In this document: positions 6,501 through 57,607 of the stretch, one piece after another
How positions within the stretch are numbered: the stretch's first letter is position 1
Layout: the number at the start of each line of letters is the position of its first letter
Origin: Hydrolagus affinis
Lineage: Eukaryota
Length of the DNA stretch: 64,000 nt
Direction: 5' to 3'
NCBI GenBank assembly: GCA_012026655.1
Contig: JAAILG010001536.1
Location: 1-64,000 of the forward strand
Made by a program: the position numbers and the translations under genes
The notes under the pieces: generated by a model
The model's input: only the letters and a program-made list of their open reading frames with translations
Told to the model about the DNA's origin: nothing
The model's database searches: none

Positions 6501-9500
6501 ATTTTCAATATAATAGAAACTGCTTCAATTAACTTTCTAATTGTTTATCCTGTGCTGCTGTTTACATATCTGTAGCACAGTAAAACTGCACACGGCAGGC
6601 CAAGCCTTTTAACTGCTATTTGATCTTTTTAAGTTGAACTGGATGTGTATTCCACCACCACCCCCCCACCCATGTAGTTTGTAGTAGAATTAAACAAAAA
6701 TTATTAAGGAGCTTATTTAGATCTAAGGAGTATTTACAAAATGAAATTTAATACAAGTAAACCTCTATTTAGGACGGGGTTGCGTTCCTGAAAAGCTGTT
6801 CTCAGATCGAAACAACCTAAATCGAAACGCAGTTCCCCATGCAGTCCCATTATATAACCTGAGATGCGTTCTTTTCACAAAATTGCGGACCTTAAACCCA
6901 CTAAATAACACACAATATAACACACATAGGCAAGAAGGAGTACTTGGGATAACTGTACAGTTTTGTACTTTAATACTGGCAAACTTTAATACATTCCTAT
7001 GTTTTGATAATCTGCTTGCACCTGTAGCTGTAACGCACCTTGAATTTGCCAGTATATTGTCCTTATTCTGTTTTATAGTAGCCCCCATAGATCTAGCTAG
7101 CCCTAAAGCCCTCCCGATGTCCGTACCTTTTTTGCCAGACTCGATGCACTTTATTACCTCCAACTTAGTGTTTAAAGTGATGACTTTGCAGGGTCTCTTG
7201 CCGCTAGCGGTATTACCGCTGCTCAGTTCACTTACTGCTGTCTCTTCCCGACATGGTGTAAACGCGGTAGAGGCTGTAAATCGCTCAAAGTTGCTCGGGA
7301 ATGTTCAGAAATTACTGTAATATTGACGTGGAGTGGTGTCGCTTCAAAATCAGCTGGCTTTTAAACAATAGCGACATGCTATTGGCCAGTTCAAACGCTT
7401 GGATACACTATATCAGGTGCGAGCGCGATTTACCTGTGAATACACTATGGACGCACCAACGACTGCGATATTCAAAATATGTACTGCGCATGCGCAAGAA
7501 AAATTTTGTTCGTCAAAACGAAACCAAGTGTCCTATATCGATAAAAAGGTGTTTAAAAATTATGTTCATTCAATCGAAATGTCCTAAATAGAAGCATCCT
7601 TAATCGAGGCTTACCTGTATTTATAATAATCCTTGCATTTGATATAGTGCCTTATTACATCTTCAAGACATCTCAAAATGCCTCACAGAATATACTGTAA
7701 AGTGCATTAACTATATATTTTGTGAGAGAAGCATGACAGCAAATTGCACACAGCAGTATCCCACAAACAGTCATTTATTGAAGTGACCAATTTTTTTTGA
7801 AGGAATTATTACCCCCCGGAAAAGCGATCCTCCAATCAACTAACAGCCAGGTTCCTACTTACTTCTAGCTAAATAGAGGTGTGGAGTAAGGAAACTTACC
7901 TAACATTTCATTCAGCCAAGAATCAAATCTAGGTCTCTTACTTGCAACGTGAGTGCTCTGAGCACTGAGCTACAGTACTCCATTTATTTGGTTGTGGGGA
8001 ACGCAGAAAGACCAGATTTCCATGTAGTTAAATAAGTCTAATACAGACATCTCCTGTTTTATGAAACTGGTTGGAAGTGGCTTTCCAAGATTAGTTGCAG
8101 GAGAGAATTATTCTTGCCACAAAAAGCCCAGCAAAACAATTTGGAGTTGTACTTGAATAGCTTTTTAATCATTGACCAGTTTCAGTTGAACAAGATCTGT
8201 AGGAGTTTGGGTGACTAATCTGAAAAGCATTCAGCTTGTACATTCACCTTCCAAAAACATGGCCTTTGGCCTCAACAAGTCTGAACTTTTTTTTTGCTAG
8301 AATGGTAAACCTTATTAATTGCCGTTTTATCCTACTTCTCAATTCTTTAACATGTCATTTTGTATTTGGTTACCTCTTGAGCTCATTTAAGCCATTTATT
8401 TCAGAGAACTTCCCTGGTGACTGATTGCACAAGTTCACTATGACCTTTTTTGTGTGAAATCTGCTTGACTTACTAATAACTTCCTAATTTTGTGTTCTCT
8501 TTCTGCCTCCCCCAGTGTGTTCAAACATTTTGCTACAATTTGTACGCTTTAACAACCCCTTTCATAATCTTAAAAATTTGAGAGATTCTTTTGGTCTAAT
8601 CAGCGCTAAAAGTTCCAGCCACCTTCACTTATTTTGGGGTTTCCCAATCTTTTTTAGGTTTCTTCCCTTCTTGTTCCAACTCTAATGCGCTTGTTCTGAG
8701 AAAGTGTCCACAAGTAACTTTATTAATTAAGGAGGTCCTGGAGCAATGAGTTTGAAGACATATGGTAAAACCCATGAAAGGTATTCGAAAAATAATTGTG
8801 GTCAAATATTCTAATGTTATAAAAATCCAAACTTCTAATTTTATATTTTTGCTCAAAAATTGTCGTAGAACCCTTCAAAATGGTGGTGTTATTTGGTTCC
8901 GCATTGTCAGAGAAATACATTGGGGTTTTAAATTTTGATTAAGGGCAATTCAAGATTCTTATTTTACGCAAACAATTGATTGCTAATTATTATTAGATAT
9001 TGCATCTTTGTACAGACGTTTATAAAATTGTTAGCCGATCATTGTTGAAACTTCTGTTCAATATACAGGAAAGCTTGGGCCTTCTCATCAATCATTTGTG
9101 TTTAAGTAAAAATGCTTGATGCTTAAGACCTTAATTTAGAAATTGGTATTAACTTAATACAGTATACCCTTATTCTTTTAATGAGGAATACAGCAACTGC
9201 CTGAAGAAGCAAGTAGTTTTTTTCTTTTATTGTGACTGATTTTTGACATTTATTATTCTGACTGATGAGTCAATGCAAGTAATGTGATTACTGTACTGTA
9301 TTAACAATTTAAATGACTTACTTTGTTGCTAAATATGAGGCTGCTTTTTGTGTATGACCTTGATTTAAGTTTTCTTTTCCATTCTTTCCTAGGAAACATT
9401 TGAGGTCTATGACCTGTATAGAGGGCAGAATATTAGCAAGGTTTTGAATACCCTTTCAGCTTTTAACAAAGCAACTGAAGGTAAGATGTGATTACCTGCA

Positions 9501-27500: not shown

Positions 27501-30500
27501 TTATGGAAAGCCAAGGCATCGCCAGCCCAGGTAGTCTGATCCTAACAACAAGCCTCAGCAAACCCTTTGTTAGACTGGGCAAGTACCCAGCACTGCTACA
27601 AGAACTGGAACGACATGTGGAGGTACTGGCACTGATTTAAGTATGAATATGGCAATTTTTGCACAAAAGAAGATTTCTATCCTCAGTTTGACCTATTTTT
27701 ATCTCTTTTTCTGTAATTTGTGTATTAAATATTATTACATTATAGCATAAATATGTTAAGAATTAAACTTGCATTTATCACCAGTTTTATCTTAGTGTGC
27801 CTTGGCTATTTGGGTCCAGGAAAGTGGCAATATTTATTTTTGGTGCCTAATTGCTTGTTCATTCACAGTTGTGTCTGATTATTAACAAAAGGGTAAAACA
27901 TTGTTAAAGTCCATTTAAATACAGAGTTGAAGATCATTTCAAATACAGGAATTCTGACTTGGTATTGCTATCACCACATTGAAGCTTTTCGAAGACTTTC
28001 TATGTGCCCAGCAGACACATTATAGGACAACTGTCTTTGTTGTAGTGTACACTTGTGGAACCTTGCATACAGAACCACACACCTAGGGGTCATTCAGTTT
28101 AATTCACGGTTATTGAATATTTTGCATAATGGCATTTGTGCTCACTAGTTAACATTATTGGCCTTTGATAACCAGTGGCAAATACTGTTTTGTACATTGT
28201 CTCTACTTTTGTAATAGCTTCCTAAAATTTGGAAACTTGTACAATTGTGTACAAGTGCAGATCTTGAGTTGATTAGCTTAATGATGATATGTCGGTTCTA
28301 TCATTGTAACCTGTTTTTGCATTCCAGTGTGCCTCCCCCTGTTTTTGCAAGTTGGCTCTAGCAAGGGTTTTAATTGAGTAGGTGCTTGTTTGGTAAAATG
28401 TGACTATTTTTAGTTTCACCTTAAGCCCACTCAATGTCATTGTGTCTTTTAATATCCTGAATATGCCTCCAATTGGTGATTGGAACTATTGTACAAAGGG
28501 CACCTTTTACTAAGGGAGCTGAATGGAAATATAATTAACAGAAAGTGCTGAATGGTACCATGGATTAGTCACACAACCAAATACACTGGAGCAAAAGAAA
28601 AATGGAGAATGTTATATGTAAATGCCACTATTATATGTACTAAGAGATGTAATAAGAAACAAGCATGTTTCTTCTGCAATATGCTTAAATCATTGTGAAG
28701 TTGTGGAAGACAAAGCTTGGCAAGGGAGGAAATGCCTATTTTAACTGGCACGAAAATGGTTCTTTTGGTTTTAGATCTGCACCCAAAAACACATGCTGTC
28801 CCATTCGCATAGGCATTGTACAACCACAGCAAAATTGATGTAATGCAAGTACTGTATCTGATGCTTTGCAGAACATTAATGGTTTCAGAGTTGGGTTTCT
28901 ATAATAAGAGAGATGTGCAAATTGTGAAAAAGTCACTGATGCTGATTTGAGAGTGGTTGGACCCCAAATATATGCCTAGACAATTTAGTTTTATTTAAAA
29001 AAAAACTATCCAGACAAATTGAATCAACTTGTTTGGTCCTTTATTTTGCATCTGGGATAAAAACACCAGGAGTACATTTAATCCACATTAGTTAAACTGA
29101 TGCAAATTTATTTTATCATTTTAATAACACTACATTTGTCAAATGTTTGTTTTAATTTTAGGAATCACATCCTGATCGTCCAAATATTTTAAAAGCAATG
29201 GCATCGTTCAAAAGCCTAGTGGTGAGTGGAAATCATGAGAGGTCAAATACAGTACAATGTTTTTAAACTGTATTACAATAGATCTGATTATTTGATGTAT
29301 CAAAGTCTGAAGGTATTTGATTAGCTCTTCCCCCAAAAAACATGGAATAATGGGATGAAATCTGTGGTTATGATAGTTATCAACAGTTTGAATGTTAACA
29401 TCAATAATTTGCATTTTTATAACACCCATCATATGGAATCCTTCCGCCTCACCCCATCCCTAGCCTACTTCAAGTCCCGCTTCAAGACCCTCCTCTTTGA
29501 CCATAACATCATTCTCCCTCCCCCTGCCTTCCCCCCACCCTCCCCAATCCAGACCCCAGCTTGAGTCTGAAATACTGACTGTCCAGCACCTTGGGATGTC
29601 CTCCCGATATGCTATACAAATGTAATTTGTTGTTCAAATGGAGAAGTGTCTTGGAATGCTTAATGTGGTGGAACGTGACTCATATGAACAAACCTAACAC
29701 TAAAATAATTCTATTTCATGTTGTTTAAACCACTTTGCCAGTAGCTGAGTACTAAGAAAGTTTGCTTGCATTTGCTATAAATAACTAGTGTTGTCACACT
29801 ATTGAGAATTAATTAATAAAGGAAATGTTTAATGCAAATCACGACACGAAAGGCACGCTATAAATGTAATTTTGTTGTTTTGGTTATCGTTGTTGTTGTT
29901 GCTTTATTCAGTTGATTCTGGTTTTGTTTTGCAGTAGTAAGACCATACTGTACACAACTATTTTAAACACACATTGTGTAAATGTCTGTGTTTTCAGGAT
30001 CAGTGTGAAGACTTACGAAAGCGGAAGTTGCTGGAACTACAGATTCTGTCAGAGCACATTCAGGGTTGGGAAGGTGAAGATATCAAAAGTCTTGGCACCG
30101 TTATTTACATGTCACAGGTCATGGTGCAATGCGGGGCAAGTGAGGTACGAGGCTTTCGTTCATATGAAGTGTTAAAAATAAACTCTTGCACATTTACACT
30201 GGAAGTTGCAAGATGCTCATGTTTCCTGTTACCACCCAAGCTGTTTGTTACCGGTTTTGGTTGGTTGCGTCTTAAATGGATGCTTCCTGTTGCTAATTCA
30301 TGTGAACTGCAATTCTGAAGGCTTGTGGCATTTCCTTACCCTTACTTCCCCACCCCCCACCTCACCACCACTTCCTTTAATCCTGTTGACAAACTATGTA
30401 CCTTTTAAGGAAATTGAACTTGGAATGCAGTGTGCTGCTACTGTAGTACACATAAACATCATGTTTGCCATGGTTTTAGATCTAACTTTAGATTCTTATC

Positions 30501-33500
30501 TCAAATGGAACGGTGAATGGTTCTCAACTCTCAACTTACTCCTCCATGGTACAGTTATTTGCCACCCTTTGGTGACTCCTTTAATAGCGTAGCTCAAATT
30601 GGAAACTCTGTGGGCAGTTCAGCTATCAAGAATTTACATCCTTCTACATTGGGACAAAATGTGTACTGCTCCACGAAACTTGCATCAAACCTGCCTGTTA
30701 AATTGTTTGAGAAATTAACTGTAAATATAAAATGAACATAAATTAGAACTGCTCTCACATTGGTTCCAGTTCTGCTCAATTTACTTTATAAAACAAAAAA
30801 CTATCCAGGAGGCTTCAATAATTATAACAGCAACAATAAAATTACATTTATAGATGCCTTTCACGTCAGGAGACAGCACATAGGAATATTTTGAAGAAAC
30901 AGCAATTGTGAACTTTGTCCCCTGAATCCTAATTACAGTAAAAGCCCATTTATCCGGCACCCTCAGGACCTGGCCAATGCCGGTTAAAGTGCGTGCCGGA
31001 TATTCGGCCGAAAACACAAATTCTTATTTTTTTAAATACATTTTTCCAGATAAATTCCAGTTAATCGAATGTGGACCTTTTTTTGATGTGCCAGTTATAC
31101 AGAAGTTACGATTGATCAGGTCACGATAAACAGGCTTTTACTGTACATTGATACAGCTGCCACTTGTTGTGGTGCAGAAGAACACATTTTTAGGTATAGC
31201 TTCACCTATAAAGTGAGCTTGTTTTTTCTTTTATAAAAAATTTTTTATTGCTATTCTCAAGTGAGATTAAAAGCGACCAAAATGTGGAACAATAATCTGA
31301 TAAACTGATTAATTTTTTTCAAAAATTGATTCTTAGGAAAAGGATGAGCGGTACTTCATGCTGTTTCCAGCTGTTCTTCTAATGCTGTCGGCAAGCCCAT
31401 GCATGAGTGGCTTTCTCTATCAGGTGAGGAAAGAAACTAAATCCTGAGGGTAAAGTGAACATTTATAAGATAGATTTTTACAAGGTCGTGTATAGTTCAA
31501 TATAATGTTCATCTGAAAATTATTTACAGATACCCTAAATCGCAGCAAATCTACATTCTAACCATTTTTCTTATTTTAGGGAAAATTGCCGTTGACAGGA
31601 ATGACAGTAACAAAATTAGAAGATAATGAGAACTTCCATTATGCCTTTGAAATCACAGGTATGTAAATCTAGACTAGGATGAAATTTCTTCCTTTATATG
31701 AGATATTATCAATACCGATCAAGAGAACACTGAGGCTGTAAGAAGTAGGTCATGTCTCACTGATCTATTTGAATTATTGGAGGCAATATCTGTCTCTGTA
31801 TAAACTGCTTATTAGAATAATTCTGTCTTCTACACTTTAATAATAGCTGGATGATGATTAATCTGTAACCTGCATATACATCACTGGCCTTTTTCTGCAC
31901 TGAAATAATTCACTGACATTTGTGAAAAGAATGCAAGTATCCTGTATTGAAAAGAATTGCTGCAGTAATTGCTTTGAGATCTTTTTGACTATGTAAATGA
32001 AACATTTTGTTGTAAATTGAACATTTAAAAATCGAGCTAATTACTACATTATATGTATGCAGTCATCTTCAAATGGGAATGTATGCTCATCTCAAAATGT
32101 AGGTATTGAACCGTTTGTGATTATTTTCAATGCTGTTTCAATACAGGTAACATGATAGAACGCATCATGGTATCCTGTAACAGCAGCCAGGAATTGCAGG
32201 ATTGGGTTGAAAACCTACACATGCTGACCAAAGGCACAATACCTGGCAGTACCACTGCAAAACCGCTCTCTGGCACATCACAGTCAGTAAGGATCTTCTA
32301 TTTGGTTTCTATTTGGTGTACGGAAGATAGACATATCGAAGCCACTTCCTTAAATATCTTACTTCCTGAAATAGCTGGTTACAAGAATGATGTGCATGTG
32401 TTCCGTTATAGAATCAATCATTGTTTTGAAGTGAAGGTCATTTTAAACCCCAAGTGTTCTGAGTATCCAATTGACATTCTAATTTGGAGTTTACCAGATT
32501 TTAATACAACTTTCTTTTCAAAGCTGAATCCTGTTTAAAAAGTAAAACTGTGCTTCTGTGTTCCTCAGTTTATTTTTTCCCTCCACCTCCTGACTGCCCT
32601 TGGATTCAGTTTTTCTACACTTCAATGTTTCGCCTCATGGGTATTCCGATACATTGCATAAACTACAAGTAATTGGAACATATCTCTCATTACTACCTAG
32701 CAGCATGGAGAGAGCAAGCAGCCTCCAGCAACTCCATCACATCAGACACCTCCCTATTCACCACCCCTGACATACAACACAGCAGGGCAAAATCGAGGAC
32801 CGCTGGAACCTCCCAAAATCTCAAAACCATGGACGCTGAGCTGCCTAAGGCCCGCACCTCCGCTAAGACCTTCTGCTGCATTAGGATACAAGGACGTAAG
32901 TTTCTGATTTGTGTAGCATAGTTTCAAATTTAACCAGGTTAATCTTCCATCACGTTTTGACTGGTATATTAATTTGGGTAATAAGTAATTGAATAAATCG
33001 ATAATTACTAATGTTTGTACATTTATTAAAATGTTACTGTAAAGGCTATTTTGTATTGATTCTTTTGTTTAAATAAAATGCTGATTTTGATAGTCATGAA
33101 ACATGGCAACCTTAAAAATTACCTTAATGTGCATGATACTGTTACTTCAGGGACTTGCATGGTTAATAACATTTGAAACTAATATGGGGGACCTTGAAAG
33201 GGTGCATTGGACGGTCTATTAGCACTAATATAGATGATATTTTAATATGATTCTTATTCTAATGAATGAACTTTTGAACTTTTCATATAATCAATCATCA
33301 ATTTTTTCTTTCACTTTCATCTTGCCTTTCCCCATTTGTTACACTGTAGAGGATGTCTTGTATCTTAAAGGTAAGGGGTAGACCAATGACTTTGCTCCTA
33401 GCTTGTGGTGGTGTGCATGCTTGAGATGTATCGTGCAATTATTGTATAGCCACTTCCTATTGTGTGTCTTGTTGCATTTCAAGAATTCTTAACATTTTTT

Positions 33501-47328: not shown

Positions 47329-47738
47329 TCAGAGCTCAAATATACCAAAGTATGTTGCTTCATCATTGCTCACAACCTTTGGGTCAGTCACTGATACAAA
47401 TAACCGGTCTCCTTTTTGGAGCTGAAATACTCCACCCTGGCTGACAGAGTTGAAACTTGATATTTGGCTGGAATCCAATGGTGTTTTTGATGCCTTCATC
47501 AGCAGGCTATCCGAATCCATATTTCTTTTCAAATAAATATATTGAACAAATGGCACCGTGGTTTTTCTGCTGGAATCCTTGTCGCTGGTCAGTCGAAAAC
47601 TAACCTGACAGTAAACATAGTAAAGTCCAGGCTTGTTAATGACCAGTTTGCCATTGGTGTAATTCATGTTCTTTGTAAATGCAGGAAATCCTGTAGACCA
47701 CTTTTTTATTGGATATCCTTTATCAGAATGAAAATTCC
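47329..47738 (-). CDS. CD40LG: CD40LG exon 5 (TNF homology domain, stop)
   Basis: aactag|NFHSDKGYPIKKWSTGFPAFTKNMNYTNGKLVINKPGLYYVYCQVSF...QGGVFQLQKGDRLFVSVTDPKVVSNDEATYFGIFEL-TGA. Confidence 0.95.
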
Positions 47739-50700
47739 CTAGTTAAAGAAAATAATCAGCTGTTATATAGAAGCATTAACATGAAGAGACTCTTTAGACT
47801 ACTGAAAACGTATCTATATCTGATCCAAGAAAATACCAGTAAACAAAAAGTCACATTCAGAGGCTAGCAGAGACACTAACTGGAACAGGACTTATACTAA
47901 TATCAAAATTTTTTTTTTTTAGCAGAATCTTTAAACACAATAATTAATAACTCCAAAAGGCTTGCTAGCCCTATAGCAATCTGGGTGCAAATTGATCAGA
48001 TTTCTCCTCTTACAATGGAAATGGATTGACTTGGTGGGGACAAAGGTTTGACGAGATATTAAGATTCACCACAAGCAATTCTTTAAATAACAATCAAATT
48101 CCACTGCAACCATTATTTTACTTATGCATATTCATTCAAGATTCTATATCCACTATGCTTTAAATTAGTTGCAATCAAGATGCCATATATGGTTGCTCGT
48201 GAATGTAATCTTAACAACTCATACAGTTGTTACAATTGTAACTTCTTATAGACATAATTAAAATGGAAGACTGGGTGACAAGATTGTGATCTGTGTCCTA
48301 ATTATGTGCAGACTGATTCGATGCAAGTTCCCATTTCCTGATGACACCATTACTTCTCTGTGATGTGAATTTGTAAACCTGAAACCAATTACTTAATGCC
48401 TGTTGATTCAGAGCAGAAAACTGCTTCTGATTCACCACTAAGAATGATAATCGCTTGGAGGTTGCAAAGATGACAGCTGTGTGAAAATCACAATGGTCCT
48501 AGCTATTCCTTCTGATGTTTGGCTCTATGTGGAATTCTTTAGTTCAGTGGTTAGAACACTAAAAACCTTACTCCACATAACTGATAATAATCCCTCAAAA
48601 AAAACAATAATAAATAGGTCATTTCAATCCACGACTGTTTGTTATACACTGCTGTGCACATTTGGCTGCTGCGTTTTGCCCACAAACATACAATGAATTA
48701 ACTTTACAGTCTATTCAGTGAAGCACTTTGAGATGTCTAGAAGATGTGATAAGGCACTATATCTAATGCAAGAATCATTATGCACCACCTTGTGAGGATC
48801 TGTTCTCATAGAACGTTTACAGCAAAAGAAGACAATTCTGTCTGTGCTTGTGCTAGGTCTATATTAGAGATACCAGGAGATCTGGAGAAATCTGCAGATT
48901 TCCCATTCTCTAATCTTTCCCAATGTAGAATTACATAGAGTATACACTACAGCACAAAATAGGCCATTCAACCCAATTGGTCTATGCTGGTGTTTATGCT
49001 CTGCATGCTCCTGCCCTTCCTCAAATAAACTTCCTCAGAATAATCTTCTATTCCTTTCTCCCTCATTTATTTATCTAGCTTCCCGTTAAATAAATTTCAA
49101 CTACTCCTTGAGGTAGCACGTTTCCCATTCCTACTGTTCCCTGGGCAAAGACGTTTCTTCTGACCTCCCGATTGGATTCATTGATTTATTTACAGTATAT
49201 TCTGTCAAGCGCTTTGACATGTCTAGAAGATGTGAAAAGCGCTATATCAAATGAAGGATTATTATAATTGAAGATTATTACTTACGGGCCCCTCCCTGAT
49301 TTTGGTCTCCCTCCCAGACGATGTGGAAACATCGTCTCTATGTCTTACCCTATAATGTTATTATTATTATTATTATTATCGAAATCTTTCATAATTTTAA
49401 AGACCTATTAGGTCAGCCCTCACCCTTCCCTTTTCAAGCAAATAGAGTCCCAAGCTTGTTCAATCTTTCCTGATAGGTATAACCTTGCAGTTATATTCTT
49501 TTATATTCTTTTTCTTGAGACACTCTTTGGTAGCCTTGCTCAAATTATCCTTTATCATGTATGAATTTAGACAGTGAGTTGTCAGCAGTTTATTCAACTA
49601 AGTGGTTGATTCAGAGCAACTCAACCTAATCCTGGGAGGGAGGGAAGAGGTTAATTGTAGCAATCCTAGCTGAGGTGACTTATTTTTATCACAGCTCAAG
49701 GATTAACCCTGCACTTTTAGCCTAAATATTAACATTTTTTGAAAAAAAAACACGTGTAACTTGTTTTAATTTATAATCTTATCCTGGATGTCAATTTGGT
49801 TCCTTTCCCATTGCCATCACCGTCGCAAAATTTAAGAATTTACCTTGTTCGCTTCCATGTTGGGTTGGCCATGCAATAAGATGAGCTGCACGGTTAACTG
49901 TGGTTCTGCCTTTGGATGGCAAAGGAAACCTGTCACCTGAACATCACAAACACACAGGATTAATAGACATTCTTGCAATATTAAGCATGAGATCCACATG
50001 CAATGGACCTGTCTTTCGGATGAGATATTAACGATCGGACGTTAAAGATCCCATGTCACTATTCGGGTGGCAAACGAATCCCTCTAATAAAATTGGTCAC
50101 TCACTCCACGGCTGTTTGTGGGACCTTGCTGTACACAATTGGCTGCCACTTTTGCCTCAAATATACAGTCACTCCATTTTACAGTAAACCCTGTGAAATG
50201 TTTTTGGGATGTCCCTCCAATGTGCTGACGCTCTATACCAAATATAAGAATTATTAGTATTTGTTACCATATTTAATTATTGTGTACAACTGGAACTCTC
50301 GGCTGATTGCAGACAGCACAGCAATGTACAATGCTCAGCTCATAGTGTGGTAAGTGCACAAGTGCCAGGCAATGTAAATACATTGACAGGGCTATGCAGA
50401 ATGTGTAAACATGATCAGGAAGTGGCCACTACACAGGGAACGTCTGTCAGATCTCCATTCAGAATTTGTCTACATAAAATATTTAGTAATTTAAAAAAAA
50501 CATAATTTAGTAAACCAAAGATCAGAACTTAACCTTGACTGATTTTAAAACACCTCATGTGTGTTGGAATGGTAATACTTATTAGTATTTGGGTATTTTG
50601 TTAGACAAAGTACCTGTAGCTCATTTAGAGGAAACCATTGTGGACTTGACCAGCTCTACCCACAGATATTTAACGTGCTGTCAGCTGATGGTGTAGCAGT

Positions 50701-53700
50701 ACTTTGGCCTGCTCTGATATGATGTCCCAACTGATGTGGTGGTATAACAGTGGTTGAATCGTAGGCCACAGGATGTACGTGCAATGGCAATGTTGTGAAA
50801 GGGGATAACTACAATATGAAATTGACTCGAACACATCAATTGGCAAATAGAAAATTAACCCAGCACGGTTATCTTTTGTATATCTGTCAGAAATATGGTA
50901 GTGATTATACCTGATTATTTCAAAGTTTAGCACATGTATGTGTTTAAAGAATATTTGTAGAAATTTTGTTTAGAAAGCGACCTCATAGATAAAGACACAG
51001 ATACAGATTTAATAAAAATCTTCCTGACGGTTTAGAAGATTATTGAATCAGAATTTGATTGAATAGACAGGAAGAATGTCCAGCATTTGGCTTTATCATC
51101 TTAGGCGATACAAGTTCTGAATTTATATACTGTAATCTAGTTCCCATTTGATCTGTTTTTATCATGTTCAATCTAGTTGCAGTGTGGTTCAGTTTGGTTT
51201 TAAGTCAAGGTACAGCCATCTATGGGCATCTTGTTTCTCCTGAAGACATGAAAATGCTTTGTGGTATATGCTTTATCCTTTTGAAGTCTATTCAACTGCA
51301 TCTTAAATAACTGGATGTGGCTTTTTATTTTGTTTTAACATCTAGGCTGCAATTAATTGTGCTGCATTGAAATACCTTTGCAAAATGCCAGCCAGATTGA
51401 TGCCTGAAATTGGATTAGCGTTTTATAGGCGTAGTTGTGCTGTAAAATTCAGCGGTAAACCAAAGAAAATTGAGACTTGAGATGTGTTAGTTATTATCGT
51501 TGCTAACTTTTGTCTCCCCATTTCTATTGTATGTGTGATGTAAGACTTCACTGTATGTGATTAACAAATGCAATTTATTTAATTTACGAAGGTTATTTTG
51601 ATGTTAAAGGATCCAAGTCCTGTTCGAAAGCTTCAAAAGAACAGTGACCACATGTTCAAAGCAAGGCAGAATAGTTTTTTATTTTCACAAATATTTTTGG
51701 GACAGTATCAAAAAAAGGATCTTAGCCATGCCTTTAAGCTTTTTTAAAAAAAACTGTAAAACTGGTATTGTAGAATTGAAGAATTTGGCTAAGCATTCCT
51801 TTCATAAACAAATGCACTCTATCATATGGGGATTTGTAAAGATATTCATAAATATCGAACCCTACAGGTACGCTGGACTGTCTCACACTGACCCAATAGA
51901 ACTTTGCTTGGGTGCCAATCTGTGCCAGTTCCCTGCTGGGTATCGGGAATCTCCTTCAGCCACAATCTGATCTCACGGAAATCAGGAATGAAATCAGTGG
52001 AGATCTAGCGGGTTGACACGAGACACAATTAGACTACGTGCAGGATTCAGTCTATGTAAATTAAGTCCCAATGTAGTAGCCACTTTGAAACATATGGAGA
52101 ATAATACACAAAAATAGATGGTACCTTTCTGCATGTCAGCTTGTGATTCTTCATTTGTATGCTGAAAAATTGAAATGACATATCATTAGCATCTAAAATC
52201 AGGATAAAAATCAAAGATAGCAGCACTCAATGAGAAAGGGTTATTTATTGCATCAAGCTTTCACATCACAGATACAGACTCTACAACAAAAAATTGGGTT
52301 TCACACATCATTTTGCCCTTTATAGTTTCATGCCTTCCTCCAATCCTAACATGATATTTGTCTAACTGTTCAAAAAAAAATCTTGCTCATCCAAATAGCA
52401 TTAACCGCGTTAGCAGGAGACTGACTATTCCAGGTATTTCTTACTCTTTCAGGGATACAAAATACTCTTATTTCAAATATTTCTGAAAGGGTTTAAAAAT
52501 GGGTTTAAAAATTTATTGAGGAGGACCCAGTATGGATCGCTGTTTTCCATGAGCCCAGCACAGACACAATGGGTTGAATGGCCCCCTTCTGTGCTGAATA
52601 ATTCTATGATTCGATTAATTCATTCTACCTTACAAAATACTTTACAATATGATTTGTAACACTGTAGCATTGCTTTGACAGGGATGTGGGGGAGCAATTA
52701 TTATTGAATTATTTGTAATTACGTGTCCAGTTACTTGAAAATGACTATAGTTAATGGAGAAATTATACTATTACTTAGTATATTACTGAATCATACAAAA
52801 CTGCATATGAATTAACACCTGAATGAGTTAGCTGATTCGATCAGTTATTTTTGAAACAATTGCTTCAGTTCACCTCTGTTTTTCATTCACAAAAAATATT
52901 CATTCCTGCTTCTTCTTTAAATTAGTTTACTATTTGAAGGAGAAAATAGTCTGGAACAGTTGTTGGATTCATTCCTTGAATCTTTCAAGAAAGTAGAGGA
53001 AGAGTACGCAGGGTATCCATCATTATAAAGTAAAAATGAATGTAAAAATATCTGGTAATACCAGGATTTTAGCCATTCCCACTTTGTTCTTCATTCGATA
53101 TGTTAAACTGGATTCAAAGAAACCATTCAAAACATTGCATTTAATTATATTATTCTATATTTGGTATGGAACACTAAGGCACACAAAAAAATATAAATAC
53201 TGTACACGCCAAAGTCAGGACCACTATTTCCGCTTTAAAATGCTTTCTGTGTTGCATGTAAATAGATGTGAAAATAGTAGAAACGTATCTGTAATCCAGT
53301 TTATCATCATATTTTCCCTTGCAAAATATAGTCACTGTTTTATAGTATATCCTGTGAAGCGGTTTGAGACATCATCCCAACATGAAAGGCACTATCTCAA
53401 TTGCAAATTTTATTGTTAAATTATGTTGTATAAGAATTTACATTTCTAAAGTTGCAGCATATCAACAAAGAGTGATACTTTATGCTGAATTCAAATCTAT
53501 TCTTCACCAACTATGGTTTCTTTGTAATTCTCTTTTGAATTTCAACTGACTTTTTAATACATTGTTATTAATGTTTCTGTGCATATTCATAGGTCTGATA
53601 TCTTAATTAAAAAAAATGAATACATGACATTTCTAATTAATTTTAAAAGCATAATAATTTCAACACATCACACGAAAGCCACAAGTATTTTCTTACCTTT

Positions 53701-53861
53701 CCTTCGAGTTTCATGGAGAAGTACACATAAAGGAAGGCACTCGAAATCATATGTGCCAGCAACATTGCAGCAATAAAATATATAAAAATTCTGACAGATA
53801 AAGATGGCTGGTGCTCACAATGCTTTGCTTGATGCGTTGACTTGTTGCATGTTTCACTCAT
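47329..53861 (-). CDS. CD40LG: CD40 ligand (CD154, TNFSF5), type II membrane TNF-superfamily ligand
   Basis: Exon 1 has a short tail and TM helix, exon 3 ends MQK-G, exon 4 has AAHLIA and exon 5 has the TNF domain, the same exon phases as CD40LG. Convergent with ARHGEF6 as at human Xq26. Exons 1+3+4+5 give 705 nt in frame (234 aa). Confidence 0.88.
48531..48781 (+). mobile_element. SINE copy in CD40LG intron 4 (antisense to the gene)
   Basis: TAGTTCAGTGGTTAGAACACT head with deletion, core GTGCACATTTGGCTGCTGCGTTTTGCCC, tail. Confidence 0.82.
48925..49490 (-). mobile_element. CR1 LINE 3' fragment interrupted by a SINE tail (about 49185-49266)
   Basis: ACAGCACAAAATAGGCCATTCAACCC is the reverse complement of a CR1 tail; CATAATTTTAAAGACCTATTAGGTCAGCCCT is the reverse complement of RGDLIEVFKIM-like coding. 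Confidence 0.65.
49844..49936 (-). CDS. CD40LG: CD40LG exon 4 (first strand of TNF domain)
   Basis: gttcag|(G)DRFPLPSKGRTTVNRAAHLIAWPTQHGSEQ+G|gtaaat; 93 nt. Confidence 0.9.
52125..52161 (-). CDS. CD40LG: CD40LG exon 3
   Basis: tttttcag|HTNEESQADMQK+G|gtacca; 37 nt, phase 0 to 1. Confidence 0.85.
52850..52981 (-). pseudogene. CD40LG: Degenerate homolog of CD40LG exon 2 (stalk exon) with in-frame stops; 3' boundary uncertain
   Basis: Good acceptor (tactcttcctctactttcttgaaag|) then IQGMNPTTVPDYFLLQIVN*FKEEAGMNIFCE*; first TAA at 52924-52922. Confidence 0.55.
53697..53861 (-). CDS. CD40LG: CD40LG exon 1 (cytoplasmic tail and transmembrane helix)
   Basis: MSETCNKSTHQAKHCEHQPSLSVRIFIYFIAAMLLAHMISSAFLYVYFSMKLEGK|gtaaga, phase 0. 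An in-frame upstream ATG at 53891 could add 10 aa. Confidence 0.9.
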
Positions 53862-53954
53862 TTTATCAACCAAGCCAGATACAGTTAGCATGATGTTCGC
53901 TTGCACACTGGAGCCAGTGCAGAGCAGTATTCACTCTTTTGTTATCCTCACACC

Positions 53955-54010
53955 TTTCAGGAAACAAAATGTTATACAGCAGATTTCTTAGAACCCACAC
54001 TTCCTGGAAA
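53955..54010 (-). promoter_or_regulatory. CD40LG proximal promoter core: NFAT/GAS/ETS/RUNX composite site, second GAS site, TATA-like element
   Basis: Minus strand reads TTTCCAGGAAGTGTGGG (54010-53994), then TTCTAAGAA (53993-53985), GTATAAC (53977-53971) and TTTCC near 53960, about 100-150 bp upstream of the ATG. Confidence 0.7.
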
Positions 54011-55574
54011 CTATGCCTCGTGTTGGTCGGTCTATTAGGGTAGACTTTGCTAAAGACACTTTGGGGTGCTCTGAATTTCCTATCATAAGTCTTTTTCGAT
54101 TCCACCCCACCCCACGCGCACTTCCCACCTCCCACTACAATAGGCAATAAAATGCTTTTAGACCATCATTGACACCTTTTATTCAAATGATCAGTTTTAT
54201 AACTTTGTGACACTGACTGTTCTAATCGTTTGATTAATGTACATTTCCTGTCTAACCTGCCTTTTCCTGTGAGGAGTTGCTTGAGAATTTTTTCAACATT
54301 ACATTTCGGAACAATGGTATACCTATGAACTTCTGTTACATAGTGTTGTAGGGCTATCATGTCAATACAACAGCTTTTGTGGGAGATGTTGACATATTTG
54401 TACACAGTGACATATTTGTACACTGTTGCATGCTTCAGGATCAGGGTAGTTTGTTGATCGCTTTGGAGGTTGAGAAATGGGGATGGAATAGTGTTACTGA
54501 AGTTGCTGTTTATCAGAAAATACAGTTTGAATAAATTATTATTTGTCTGCCTATACCAGGAGTTTATTATTTAAGTGGATCTCACATTTTGTTAAGATTT
54601 CTACCTTGCAAGCAATTCATGTGTGAGTGTTTTTGTGCAGTTATCATGAACCAATTTGAACATTTGTGAAATTTCCCAAAAGGCACAAAGTTTGTAGTTT
54701 GTAGAATTATACCCAAATGTTGTACAAGGCTGCAAAACCACCAGAACAATAAAACTGCTATTGTTGTTGTGATGTATGGTTTGAAGCTTGTGTTTAATTT
54801 ACCCTCTCTGTGTTTATTTTTGTTCCACTTGGTACTTTACTTTTTCAAAAAGATAAATTCCGTCTGGTACTTTTTTCAAAAATATAAATTGTTGAGCCTT
54901 GTTTTAACTACAGTATGTATTAGTAAAAGTAAGCGCTTTAAAAATAGCTCCATGGGACACATAGTTGTTGGTTACAATAACAACTTACAATTATATAGCA
55001 CCCTTCACGCTGGACGGCGTCTCAGAGCGCTTACTTTACAGTTACTGTGGCTAGTTAAAACCTGCTTTAACAGAATAGTTCGACTGCTGCTGCTCCTGCT
55101 AATTCATGCTGCTAATGAAGCAGCATGAATTGCCCCAGAATTTAAATAACTACAGTGAAAGTAAAAGTGTCACCTGTCTGCAGCTTTAGTTACCACATAA
55201 TGACTTGAATCACATGACATGCTCCAGATAATCAGAATGTCCACATAAAAAGAAATTCACTTCTTTAGAATAGAGACTGGTACCACTGAAGACTTTATGT
55301 CTTCATATCTTTCCTAACTTTCCTGTTACTGGGTCTTCTGAAAGATTTCTCAGAAACCATCTTCAAAGCTACAATTTACCCTCATGTATATGTAGACATT
55401 AAGCTAAATCTCTTCATTCTCCTCAGCCCTGCTACTGACTATGACTGAGTACACTTTGACTCTATTCACCTTATGAAATTGACTAATTGATTTTTAAGCA
55501 AGCAAGCAAAATCTCTATGGTTGAGAGTTCCTAAAGGTATCAAATTGGCAGAACTTGCTCTTATTTCAATCTGC

Positions 55575-55850: not shown

Positions 55851-57507
55851 AATTTAGTCATGGGTCTCAAGCACTTTTTTTTAAAAAGTGCTTAAGTTGA
55901 ATGAATCTGCTTACTTAATGTGAATAGAGAAAATCAGTATTTGCATACTGTACAGTGAAACTAACATTTTGTAACGTGCTTCAACTGTAAAAAATAAACC
56001 ACTTCAAAAATCATTGAGCTACCACTATATGAATCACTTGATAGTCTTTGTGCCTGGGTATTGAAATCAGTATGTCGCCTCACCTCCTCAGCCGTGCAGT
56101 AACACTGCTGTCATTTCTGCTGTTAAGATAACTTAGAGATTTTATTCAACTAAATTCTATCTTGAGGTGCTGTTGCTGTTATTCATACCCACACTAGTTA
56201 CCTTTTGTGCTTGAAATTGGGAATGGAATCCTGAAGTGTCAGGTTTATATCCATTATCCCACATTTCCAGAGATGTCATTGGTGTCTTCAGAGGCTTGGA
56301 GAATCTTGAGTCCACTAAGACTTCATCAGCATTGTGAAATTGACTCATTATTTTTTTAAGTGAGATGCACAAGCAAAAGTATCAAATTGGTGTCTTGCTC
56401 TTAATTAGTTGGGAGTGTCAAGCCCTCTATACAAAGGGTTATGTGTTAATACAAGTTGTTGTTAATTTTTTTAAAGATGCTTAAGCTGAACATAGTTGAT
56501 CCATGTTGGTCCACACGGAGTTATTTTTGACGCGTCACATGATGTTGATGGTAGATCAGTAAAAGTGGTCCGATAACGCAGGCAATTTTCAAGTGAAATC
56601 ATCACATCCCAACCCACAGTAAGGCGACATTCACAGTAACCCGTCGTCCATCTACACGTTATAAGAAGAGTTGCAAGGAAACGAGTGTCGTAGGCAAAGA
56701 TGTGCTGTTGATCCACCTTGTGGCTTCAAACCTAGGCACTGTACCACACAGCTGCAGGTAATAACCGTGAACAAAGAGATAAGATATTTTACTCATCAAC
56801 ATAAGAACCACATTAAACTAGCTACAAATGTATGTAGGTGTGCTGCAGTGTGCCTGCATACGGCTTTACCTTCTTACCTGCATTGAACTATAGGCGAGAG
56901 ATTATGGCTTCAATAGCTCACTTTACAAAAAAAATTAAATGAGACAATATTGTTGTAAATAACAACCGCAGATATGGGTGGTTGTGAGGCTAGAATTCAA
57001 CTGCAACAAAATTAAATTTGCAAGGTTTATCCGTACATAAACTACATTCATCAGATTGCTATTACAGCGAGACATTATTCTGTAAAGAACTGCAACCTAC
57101 ACAGAGGGAACACAAGGTCAGGTGGATTCACAGAACAGATGCTGCCTAATAAAAATATTGATAGCCACAGGGACTATATGAAACCCATCACAACCTCACA
57201 AAAGGAAATCTGAATTGAAATCGACTGCATTCAGTGAATGGTCAATTTAGCTGTTCATAGCTAGAAATAACATATGGAGTAGTATGGTAACTGTACACAT
57301 ATACTTTATTATGAATCAGATGAATCATTAACATGTGGTCGCTATATGCATAGATTGACTATAAGGTTTTCCATACTCATGATATAAAAAAAGTTAACAA
57401 CCAGTGAAGAAGCTCATGCAGTCAATCCACTTTACAGTATGTTCAGTGAAGCGCTTTAGATGCCTCGAAAATGTGACAAGGCGTTTAATCAAATGAAAGG
57501 ATTATTA

Positions 57508-57607
57508 NNNNNNNNNNNNNNNNNNNNNNNNNNNNNNNNNNNNNNNNNNNNNNNNNNNNNNNNNNNNNNNNNNNNNNNNNNNNNNNNNNNNNNNNNNNNN
57601 NNNNNNN
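57508..57607. other. Assembly gap (100 N)
   Basis: Run of N between a SINE tail and an L2 3' end. Confidence 0.99.

Follow-up and report, generated by a model that had tools for sequence, protein, structure and literature searches.

RESULTS AND DISCUSSION

A single-copy CD40LG gene in a chimaera

The locus raises the question of whether a chimaera CD40LG gene, whose other coding exons are intact, still has a working exon 2, the exon that in sharks encodes a stalk segment with two cysteines, and, if it does not, what form of CD40L (CD40 ligand) the gene would produce. The window, by which we mean the whole 64,000-nucleotide stretch of DNA analysed, carries a single-copy holocephalan (chimaera) CD40LG adjoining an ARHGEF6-like gene. 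CD40LG lies on the minus strand, with coding exons at 53891/53861-53697, 52161-52125, 49936-49844 and 47738-47329 and with GT-AG ends throughout. The coding part of exon 1 (53697-53891), encoding the cytoplasmic tail and the transmembrane helix, has methionine codons at 53891 and 53861 and a phase-0 donor, AAG/GTAAGA; when relatives were compared with the window by tblastn it showed 89% identity with residues 1-65 of the Callorhinchus milii protein, and it lines up with the N-terminal hydrophobic segment of the relatives. Exon 3 (52125-52161; 37 nt) starts in phase 0 and has the length of the matching C. milii segment; its methionine aligns with the human cleavage residue M113, and its M..KGD spacing equals the human numbering given in the consulted part of PMC9179867. 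Exon 4 (49844-49936; 93 nt) was placed by tblastn of relatives together with splice-site mapping, and exon 5 (47329-47738) encodes an intact TNF homology domain (Pfam TNF, E 1.3e-32), giving the layout of a type II membrane protein with a C-terminal TNF homology domain. An earlier reading, made from the sequence only, had placed the end of exon 1 at 53697 and the start of exon 3 at 52161, both in phase 0, and had described exons 1, 3, 4 and 5 as clean; splice-site mapping confirmed both boundaries, and all four exons are open with canonical splice sites. Two smaller observations concern the ends of these exons. The ATA codon at 53930-53928 (minus strand) aligns with the first methionine of the longer shark CD40L proteins (residue 1 in sawshark), which suggests that an upstream start was lost and that the chimaera cytoplasmic tail would be approximately 13 residues shorter than that of sharks. 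Exon 3 specifies 13 residues in the chimaera and C. milii, where the corresponding part of the shark protein has approximately 23, which shortens the stalk a second time.

The protein closest to exon 5 is the C. milii CD40 ligand (79% identity), followed by 14 shark and ray proteins at 61-69%, and on this ground the window is assigned to a holocephalan. In a TNF-domain tree of 28 rows, assembled without rows for TNFSF12, RANKL, mammal CD40L or teleost CD40L, chimaera CD40LG is sister to C. milii within a CD40L clade of 16 rows (support 100/99) that includes coelacanth, lungfish and frog CD40L, with the TRAIL-like rows and four paralogues from the same genome falling outside it. By plain similarity against the PDB, TRAIL scores above human CD40L for shark CD40L. 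A search of the chimaera's own genome with exon 5 returned ten matches of which one exceeded 43% identity, so that the gene is single copy. The neighbouring gene was recognized from a plus-strand exon near 30,000 (PDB 1v61, E 5.9e-11), the call as ARHGEF6 rather than ARHGEF7 being made by similarity only; ARHGEF6-like exons encoding a PH domain lie at 29941-30318 and 32110-32538 on the plus strand, convergent with CD40LG. Presumably ARHGEF6 also adjoins CD40LG in the human genome, and the ARHGEF6-like neighbour preserves synteny with the human Xq26 region. The assignment of the TNFSF5 region to human Xq26 is taken from the relevant part of PMC11762692.

A decayed exon 2 between exons 1 and 3

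Within the intron that separates exons 1 and 3, the best match of a shark exon-2 profile is a 134-nt minus-strand segment (52848-52981), running from an AG to the homologous exon end, which we describe as a decayed exon 2, or pseudo-exon. Its acceptor survives (52982-53003), with a tract that is 0.84 pyrimidine and ends in AAG, the AG itself at 52983-52982; in the real acceptors of the gene the pyrimidine fraction is 0.63-0.68 and the last three bases are CAG or TAG. From there the frame is open for 19 codons up to a premature TAA (52922-52924) at a shark lysine position, and the next codon encodes phenylalanine at the position of the first stalk cysteine. The codon for the second stalk cysteine is retained at 52891-52889, and two codons beyond it a premature TGA (52883-52885) stands at a shark glycine position. 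Frame mapping then places a 2-base frameshift at approximately 52878-52879, past which the shifted frame (52877-52848) holds ten further shark-like codons, including the ELKQL block. At the homologous exon end there is no GT, and the bases at 52842-52847 (TAACT, without the +1 G) are probably what is left of the exon-2 donor. The acceptor before 52981, the two stops, the replacement of the first cysteine by phenylalanine after the TAA and the ELKQL block in a shifted frame had all been reported in the sequence-only reading and were found again here; its relic, drawn as 52850-52981, stood as to homology and start, with the end moved to 52848.

The homology of this segment was assessed with frameshift-aware profiles. 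With seven sharks in the profile, 52981-52848 is the top match in the window, both strands considered, at a score of 23.5 (runner-up 22.1), a score reached by two of 1000 dinucleotide shuffles of the 1535-base intron. An eight-shark profile with a 2-base step, which was added post hoc with the alignment already known, scores the relic at 30.2, a value reached by none of 500 shuffles, and a profile of eight sharks plus four bony vertebrates gives a score reached by two of 500 shuffles, or by none of 500 if anchored at the AG. Scans without an anchor began at the AG and stopped at the homologous exon end, neither position having been given to them. The relic is 27-39% identical with the eight shark exon-2 peptides, the sawshark peptide being 33-42% identical with those of other sharks; the limits of shark exon 2 were set by the breaks of the C. 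milii and Heptranchias records in the protein alignment and not by shark genes. A ray-only profile (three rays) missed the relic, its best score being reached by 59 of 500 shuffles, as did a bony-vertebrate-only profile (four proteins; 450 of 500 shuffles). Plain tblastn, which had been proposed as a check of shark exon 2 against this intron, gave no significant result: the best match of a single exon-2 peptide had E 0.013 when the search was confined to the intron, no match was significant across the window, and the relic was absent from the matches when the full-length proteins of 15 relatives were compared with the window. The shuffle tests with the profiles bear out the proposed similarity. 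The segment thus has homology to a coding exon and lies at the orthologous position.

The narrow lead over the runner-up in the window and the weak tblastn results are what could be said for a chance look-alike, with a real exon 2 elsewhere. Against this, no better exon-2 profile match was found elsewhere in the intron, the relic DNA occurs once in its own genome, and, among the 30 stop-free phase-0 AG..GT stretches that the intron holds, the only one to pass both splice-site filters sits away from the profile match.

An exon-2 frameshift shared with two relatives

The same lesions could instead be errors of the assembly, and we compared the region 52060-54060 with two public organisms, A and B (four of 16 listed runs), which share 0.57 and 0.46 respectively of sampled words with the window and are probably relatives and not its source. 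The organism A contig spans 52060-53392 with 18 substitutions and four gap letters, all of the latter from one insertion at 52319; 15 of the 18 substitutions could be placed, and none of these 15 falls in the 134-base relic. The organism B contig spans 52837-53114 with four substitutions, three of them placed, and no gaps; two listed changes lie in the relic, a synonymous one at 52949 and a glutamate to aspartate change at 52869. Twenty-two difference rows were unlisted, which accounts for the unplaced substitutions (three of 18 in A and one of four in B), and most likely these rows come from the two high-copy repeats in the stretch. Two short fragments of such repeats lie in intron 1 of CD40LG (52555-52612 and 53339-53406) and have very high depth in both DNA and RNA runs. 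At 53608-53614 organism A has 63 different letters in place of five in the window.

Neither organism has gap letters in the relic and the exon-2 frameshift is therefore common to both; neither stop has a listed change in A or B, and B surely keeps at least one of the two. The missing donor is common to A, and in B, where it lies approximately 10 bases from the contig end, it is less sure. Because independent contigs of two other organisms keep the same frame, without indels and with neither stop showing a listed change, the lesions are not assembly errors, and the explanation by assembly error or look-alike is largely refuted and in our estimate extremely improbable. We found neither stops produced by misassembly, nor an intact exon 2 elsewhere in the intron, nor a lack of significant similarity, the three outcomes that had been named in advance as telling against a decayed exon. 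The change is not peculiar to this species, as it is common to the two relatives and probably to C. milii. The segment thus carries fixed disabling lesions, namely two stops and a frameshift in addition to the missing donor, as a pseudo-exon should. The listed relic changes in A and B together number two, compared with approximately 3.1 expected from the flanking DNA (1.8 + 1.3), which are very few changes on which to judge.

Splicing of the gene

With a phase-0 boundary at the end of exon 1 and another at the start of exon 3, a transcript without exon 2 stays in frame and would encode a protein of 234 amino acids from the methionine at 53861, or of 244 from that at 53891, the position at which the C. 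milii record begins. Our preferred reading, to which we assign a probability of roughly 0.8, is that the exon-2 segment is a broken remnant and that the gene likely splices exon 1 to exon 3, yielding a product of 234-244 amino acids with a 35-residue cysteine-free stalk. The profile match, the lesions and the C. milii record uphold the original proposal of a decayed exon 2, an in-frame skip (234 amino acids) and a short stalk without cysteines.

Any sizeable stop-free use of the relic would be limited to a 17-codon mini-exon made of its first 51 bases and closed by a cryptic donor, ATA/GTAAAC (52925-52933; GT at 52930), which would likewise give a shortened cysteine-free stalk in a protein of 251 (or 261) amino acids. 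Its acceptor tract is the 0.84 pyrimidine one described above, the part is stop-free and in phase 0, and the sole change listed within it among the relatives, at 52949 in organism B, is synonymous, although a single such change is no basis for inferring selection. The donor matches the consensus at only four of nine positions, without a G at either -1 or +5, whereas the real donors of the gene match at seven, five and seven of nine, and an insert of this kind is missing from the C. milii record. The sequence-only reading had offered this site as a way of adding 17 residues; the site exists and its frame is open, but we regard its use as unlikely.

Improbable, in our judgement, is a regulatory role for the relic as a poison exon, in which inclusion through a donor at 52873 or 52818 would bring a stop at codon 75 and nonsense-mediated decay would tune the amount of CD40L, with the skipped form made in parallel. 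The surviving acceptor and these two nearby donors, each with five of nine matches (six with wobble) and each including the relic stops if used, would permit this, as would the absence of listed changes in organism A over the 134 bases; however, the two listed changes in A and B against the approximately 3.1 expected fit neutral decay, and no RNA read fell on the relic at the very low depth available. That depth comes from two RNA runs of one sample, of which approximately 27-30% of each was read for the region 52060-54060. No RNA set was among the listed public matches to the gene, which tells neither for nor against its expression. The organism B run gave approximately five whole reads, all on exon 1, with none on the relic, exon 3 or the unique intron and none across a joint, and the second run gave only repeat-derived reads. 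This very low expression in the only RNA tested, taken with the breakage of an ancestrally conserved exon, could mean that the entire CD40LG is a dying or dead copy in the chimaera lineage. Exons 1, 3, 4 and 5 are nevertheless open, with canonical splice sites and 79-89% identity with C. milii in a single-copy gene. If the library was stranded, the exon-1 reads also have the orientation expected of sense RNA, and we consider a dead gene very improbable.

Returning to constitutive skipping, a plausible course is that exon 2 stopped being recognized, possibly through loss of the donor G; that its skipping was cheap, as the frame would be kept and the receptor-binding TNF domain is encoded in exons 4-5; and that the skipped relic then decayed neutrally, following what may have been a single loss event before Callorhinchus split from the other chimaeras. 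Against constitutive skipping we count the acceptor tract of the relic, which is still pyrimidine-rich, and the lack of any read joining exon 1 to exon 3 in the two RNA runs.

The CD40L stalk across vertebrates and the age of the loss

The C. milii CD40L record (249 amino acids; XP_007890910.1, NP_001409367.1, UniProt V9L0T0) is like the skip model of the chimaera in having no exon-2 segment and a 35-residue stalk without cysteine, with 16 residues from the membrane to the methionine of M..KGD, a 13-residue exon-3 segment and the same first methionine. The two were compared at the protein level (79% identity in exon 5). We take the NP_ and V9 accessions to be transcript-based records. The C. 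milii genome paper, in the part concerned, describes deposited transcripts (PMC3964593). The arrangement of five coding exons that includes a two-cysteine stalk exon 2 is thus broken at exon 2 in the chimaera gene, a variant common to the C. milii protein.

Stalks were measured in 21 proteins. The nine sharks have 85-91 residues and two cysteines, the four bony vertebrates 80-98 residues and two cysteines, and the six rays 75-77 residues and between none and two cysteines; Heptranchias has 45 residues and no cysteine, and C. milii 35. The shark gene is the same gene (Scyliorhinus, Mustelus, Carcharodon, Heterodontus, Pristiophorus and others) but retains an exon-2 segment of 40-46 amino acids with two cysteines. 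In rays the stalk is likewise altered, but by a remodelled exon 2 (a segment of 32-33 amino acids) and not by its loss: the segment is shorter and divergent and lacks the canonical cysteine pair, with Mobula and Hypanus having no stalk cysteine at all. As two of the six ray proteins measured lack any stalk cysteine, the loss of these residues is not confined to the chimaera. The exon-2 segment is also absent from the model of Heptranchias perlo (XP_067852818.1), which may reflect an independent loss or an annotation miss. The segment is kept in 13 of 15 cartilaginous-fish proteins and in all four lobe-finned-fish and amphibian CD40L proteins, from which we conclude that it is ancestral.

The skipping of exon 2 is probably constitutive and was probably fixed before the living chimaera families split. 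The exon 5 identity of only 79% places the window probably outside Callorhinchus, so that a single loss would predate that split. Published dates, in the parts of the sources that concern them, put the ancestor of living Callorhinchus at approximately 15 Ma and crown holocephalans at 173 Ma by morphology or approximately 245 Ma by DNA (PMC11521621), and the Chimaera-Callorhinchus split at approximately 187 Ma (PMC12952989). On these dates, one loss before the Callorhinchus split would have occurred at approximately 170-245 Ma, although parallel losses in chimaeras and C. milii may also have taken place. In a rough model that is uninformative for dating, two stops have a probability of at most 0.04 below approximately 0.05 substitutions per site and are compatible with 0.1-0.6. 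Reconstructions of the ancestral jawed-vertebrate immune system use the elephant shark, C. milii, as their standard outgroup, and the short CD40L of this species represents a derived loss, since sharks, coelacanth, lungfish and frogs keep a two-cysteine stalk exon and the relic shows that chimaeras once had exon 2.

Predicted consequences for the stalk and for shedding

In a model that AlphaFold gave for catshark CD40L (mean pLDDT 65; 32-row alignment), exon 2 encodes a helical part (helices 86-98, 100-103 and 107-130) that has a pLDDT of approximately 60-70 and continues from the membrane helix, with residues 127-159 at low confidence. On this model the chimaera protein is predicted to lose a helical, probably disulfide-tied, membrane-proximal segment, the disulfide being one that would join the two stalk cysteines. 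Human CD40L, as described in the consulted part of PMC9179867, is shed at M113, has KGD at 115-117 and is more potent in its membrane-bound form; its ectodomain begins at H47 according to the corresponding part of PMC9096836. Across exons 3-4 the chimaera has the same M..KGD spacing as the human protein. The M113-like cleavage site is predicted, by alignment, to move from approximately 65 residues from the membrane (65 in sawshark) to 16, so that shedding of chimaera CD40L would be expected to be easier.

A close parallel exists in human CD40LG alleles that skip exon 2 (intron-2 donor +2T>A) and are associated with mild X-linked hyper-IgM syndrome, which show the same in-frame exon loss and likewise a damaged donor. 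In the sections of the reports bearing on this, exon-2 skipping is linked to a milder disease and to a shorter protein reported to bind CD40 less well (PMC9096836), and a mild case also made some normal mRNA (PMC12086146); the human exon-2-skipped protein may therefore be insufficient alone. Whereas the human skip is a rare disease allele with residual normal mRNA, the chimaera loss appears fixed, with no normal form possible. The chimaeras accordingly offer a natural experiment on the CD40L stalk, with the same in-frame deletion that is linked to mild immunodeficiency in people. A wider and distinctly tentative proposal, which we think rather doubtful as a whole, is that all living chimaeras have carried the equivalent of a human allele for mild hyper-IgM syndrome for at least 170 million years, that the 16-residue spacing makes for a readily shed, mostly soluble CD40L with T-cell help for B cells weakened or re-routed, and that rays, and perhaps hexanchiform sharks, altered the stalk independently.

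Earlier reports and other features of the window

The change described here is a lineage-level exon loss, real but ordinary in kind (skipping, then decay), that affects the stalk of a co-stimulatory ligand of importance to immunity; databases already list the short protein for C. milii. We found no paper on loss of an exon or of the stalk in chimaera CD40L, although earlier reports on catshark CD40L or on human exon 2 could mention it. The main text of Venkatesh 2014 (PMC3964593) has no occurrence of CD40, and one of its supplementary files has none of five CD40L names; in the term-searched parts of two TNF-family surveys (PMC7674686 and PMC11762692) CD40L exons are undiscussed, and in PMC6238376 the name CD40L occurs only within a cited reference.

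Three further features were seen in the window. A low-complexity CA/GT-rich stretch at 300-1600 gives long spurious open frames, and a 100-base N gap lies at approximately 57500-57600. An open reading frame at 6765-7304 on the minus strand encodes a CENP-B N-terminal DNA-binding domain and is likely a fragment of a pogo/Tigger-type transposon.
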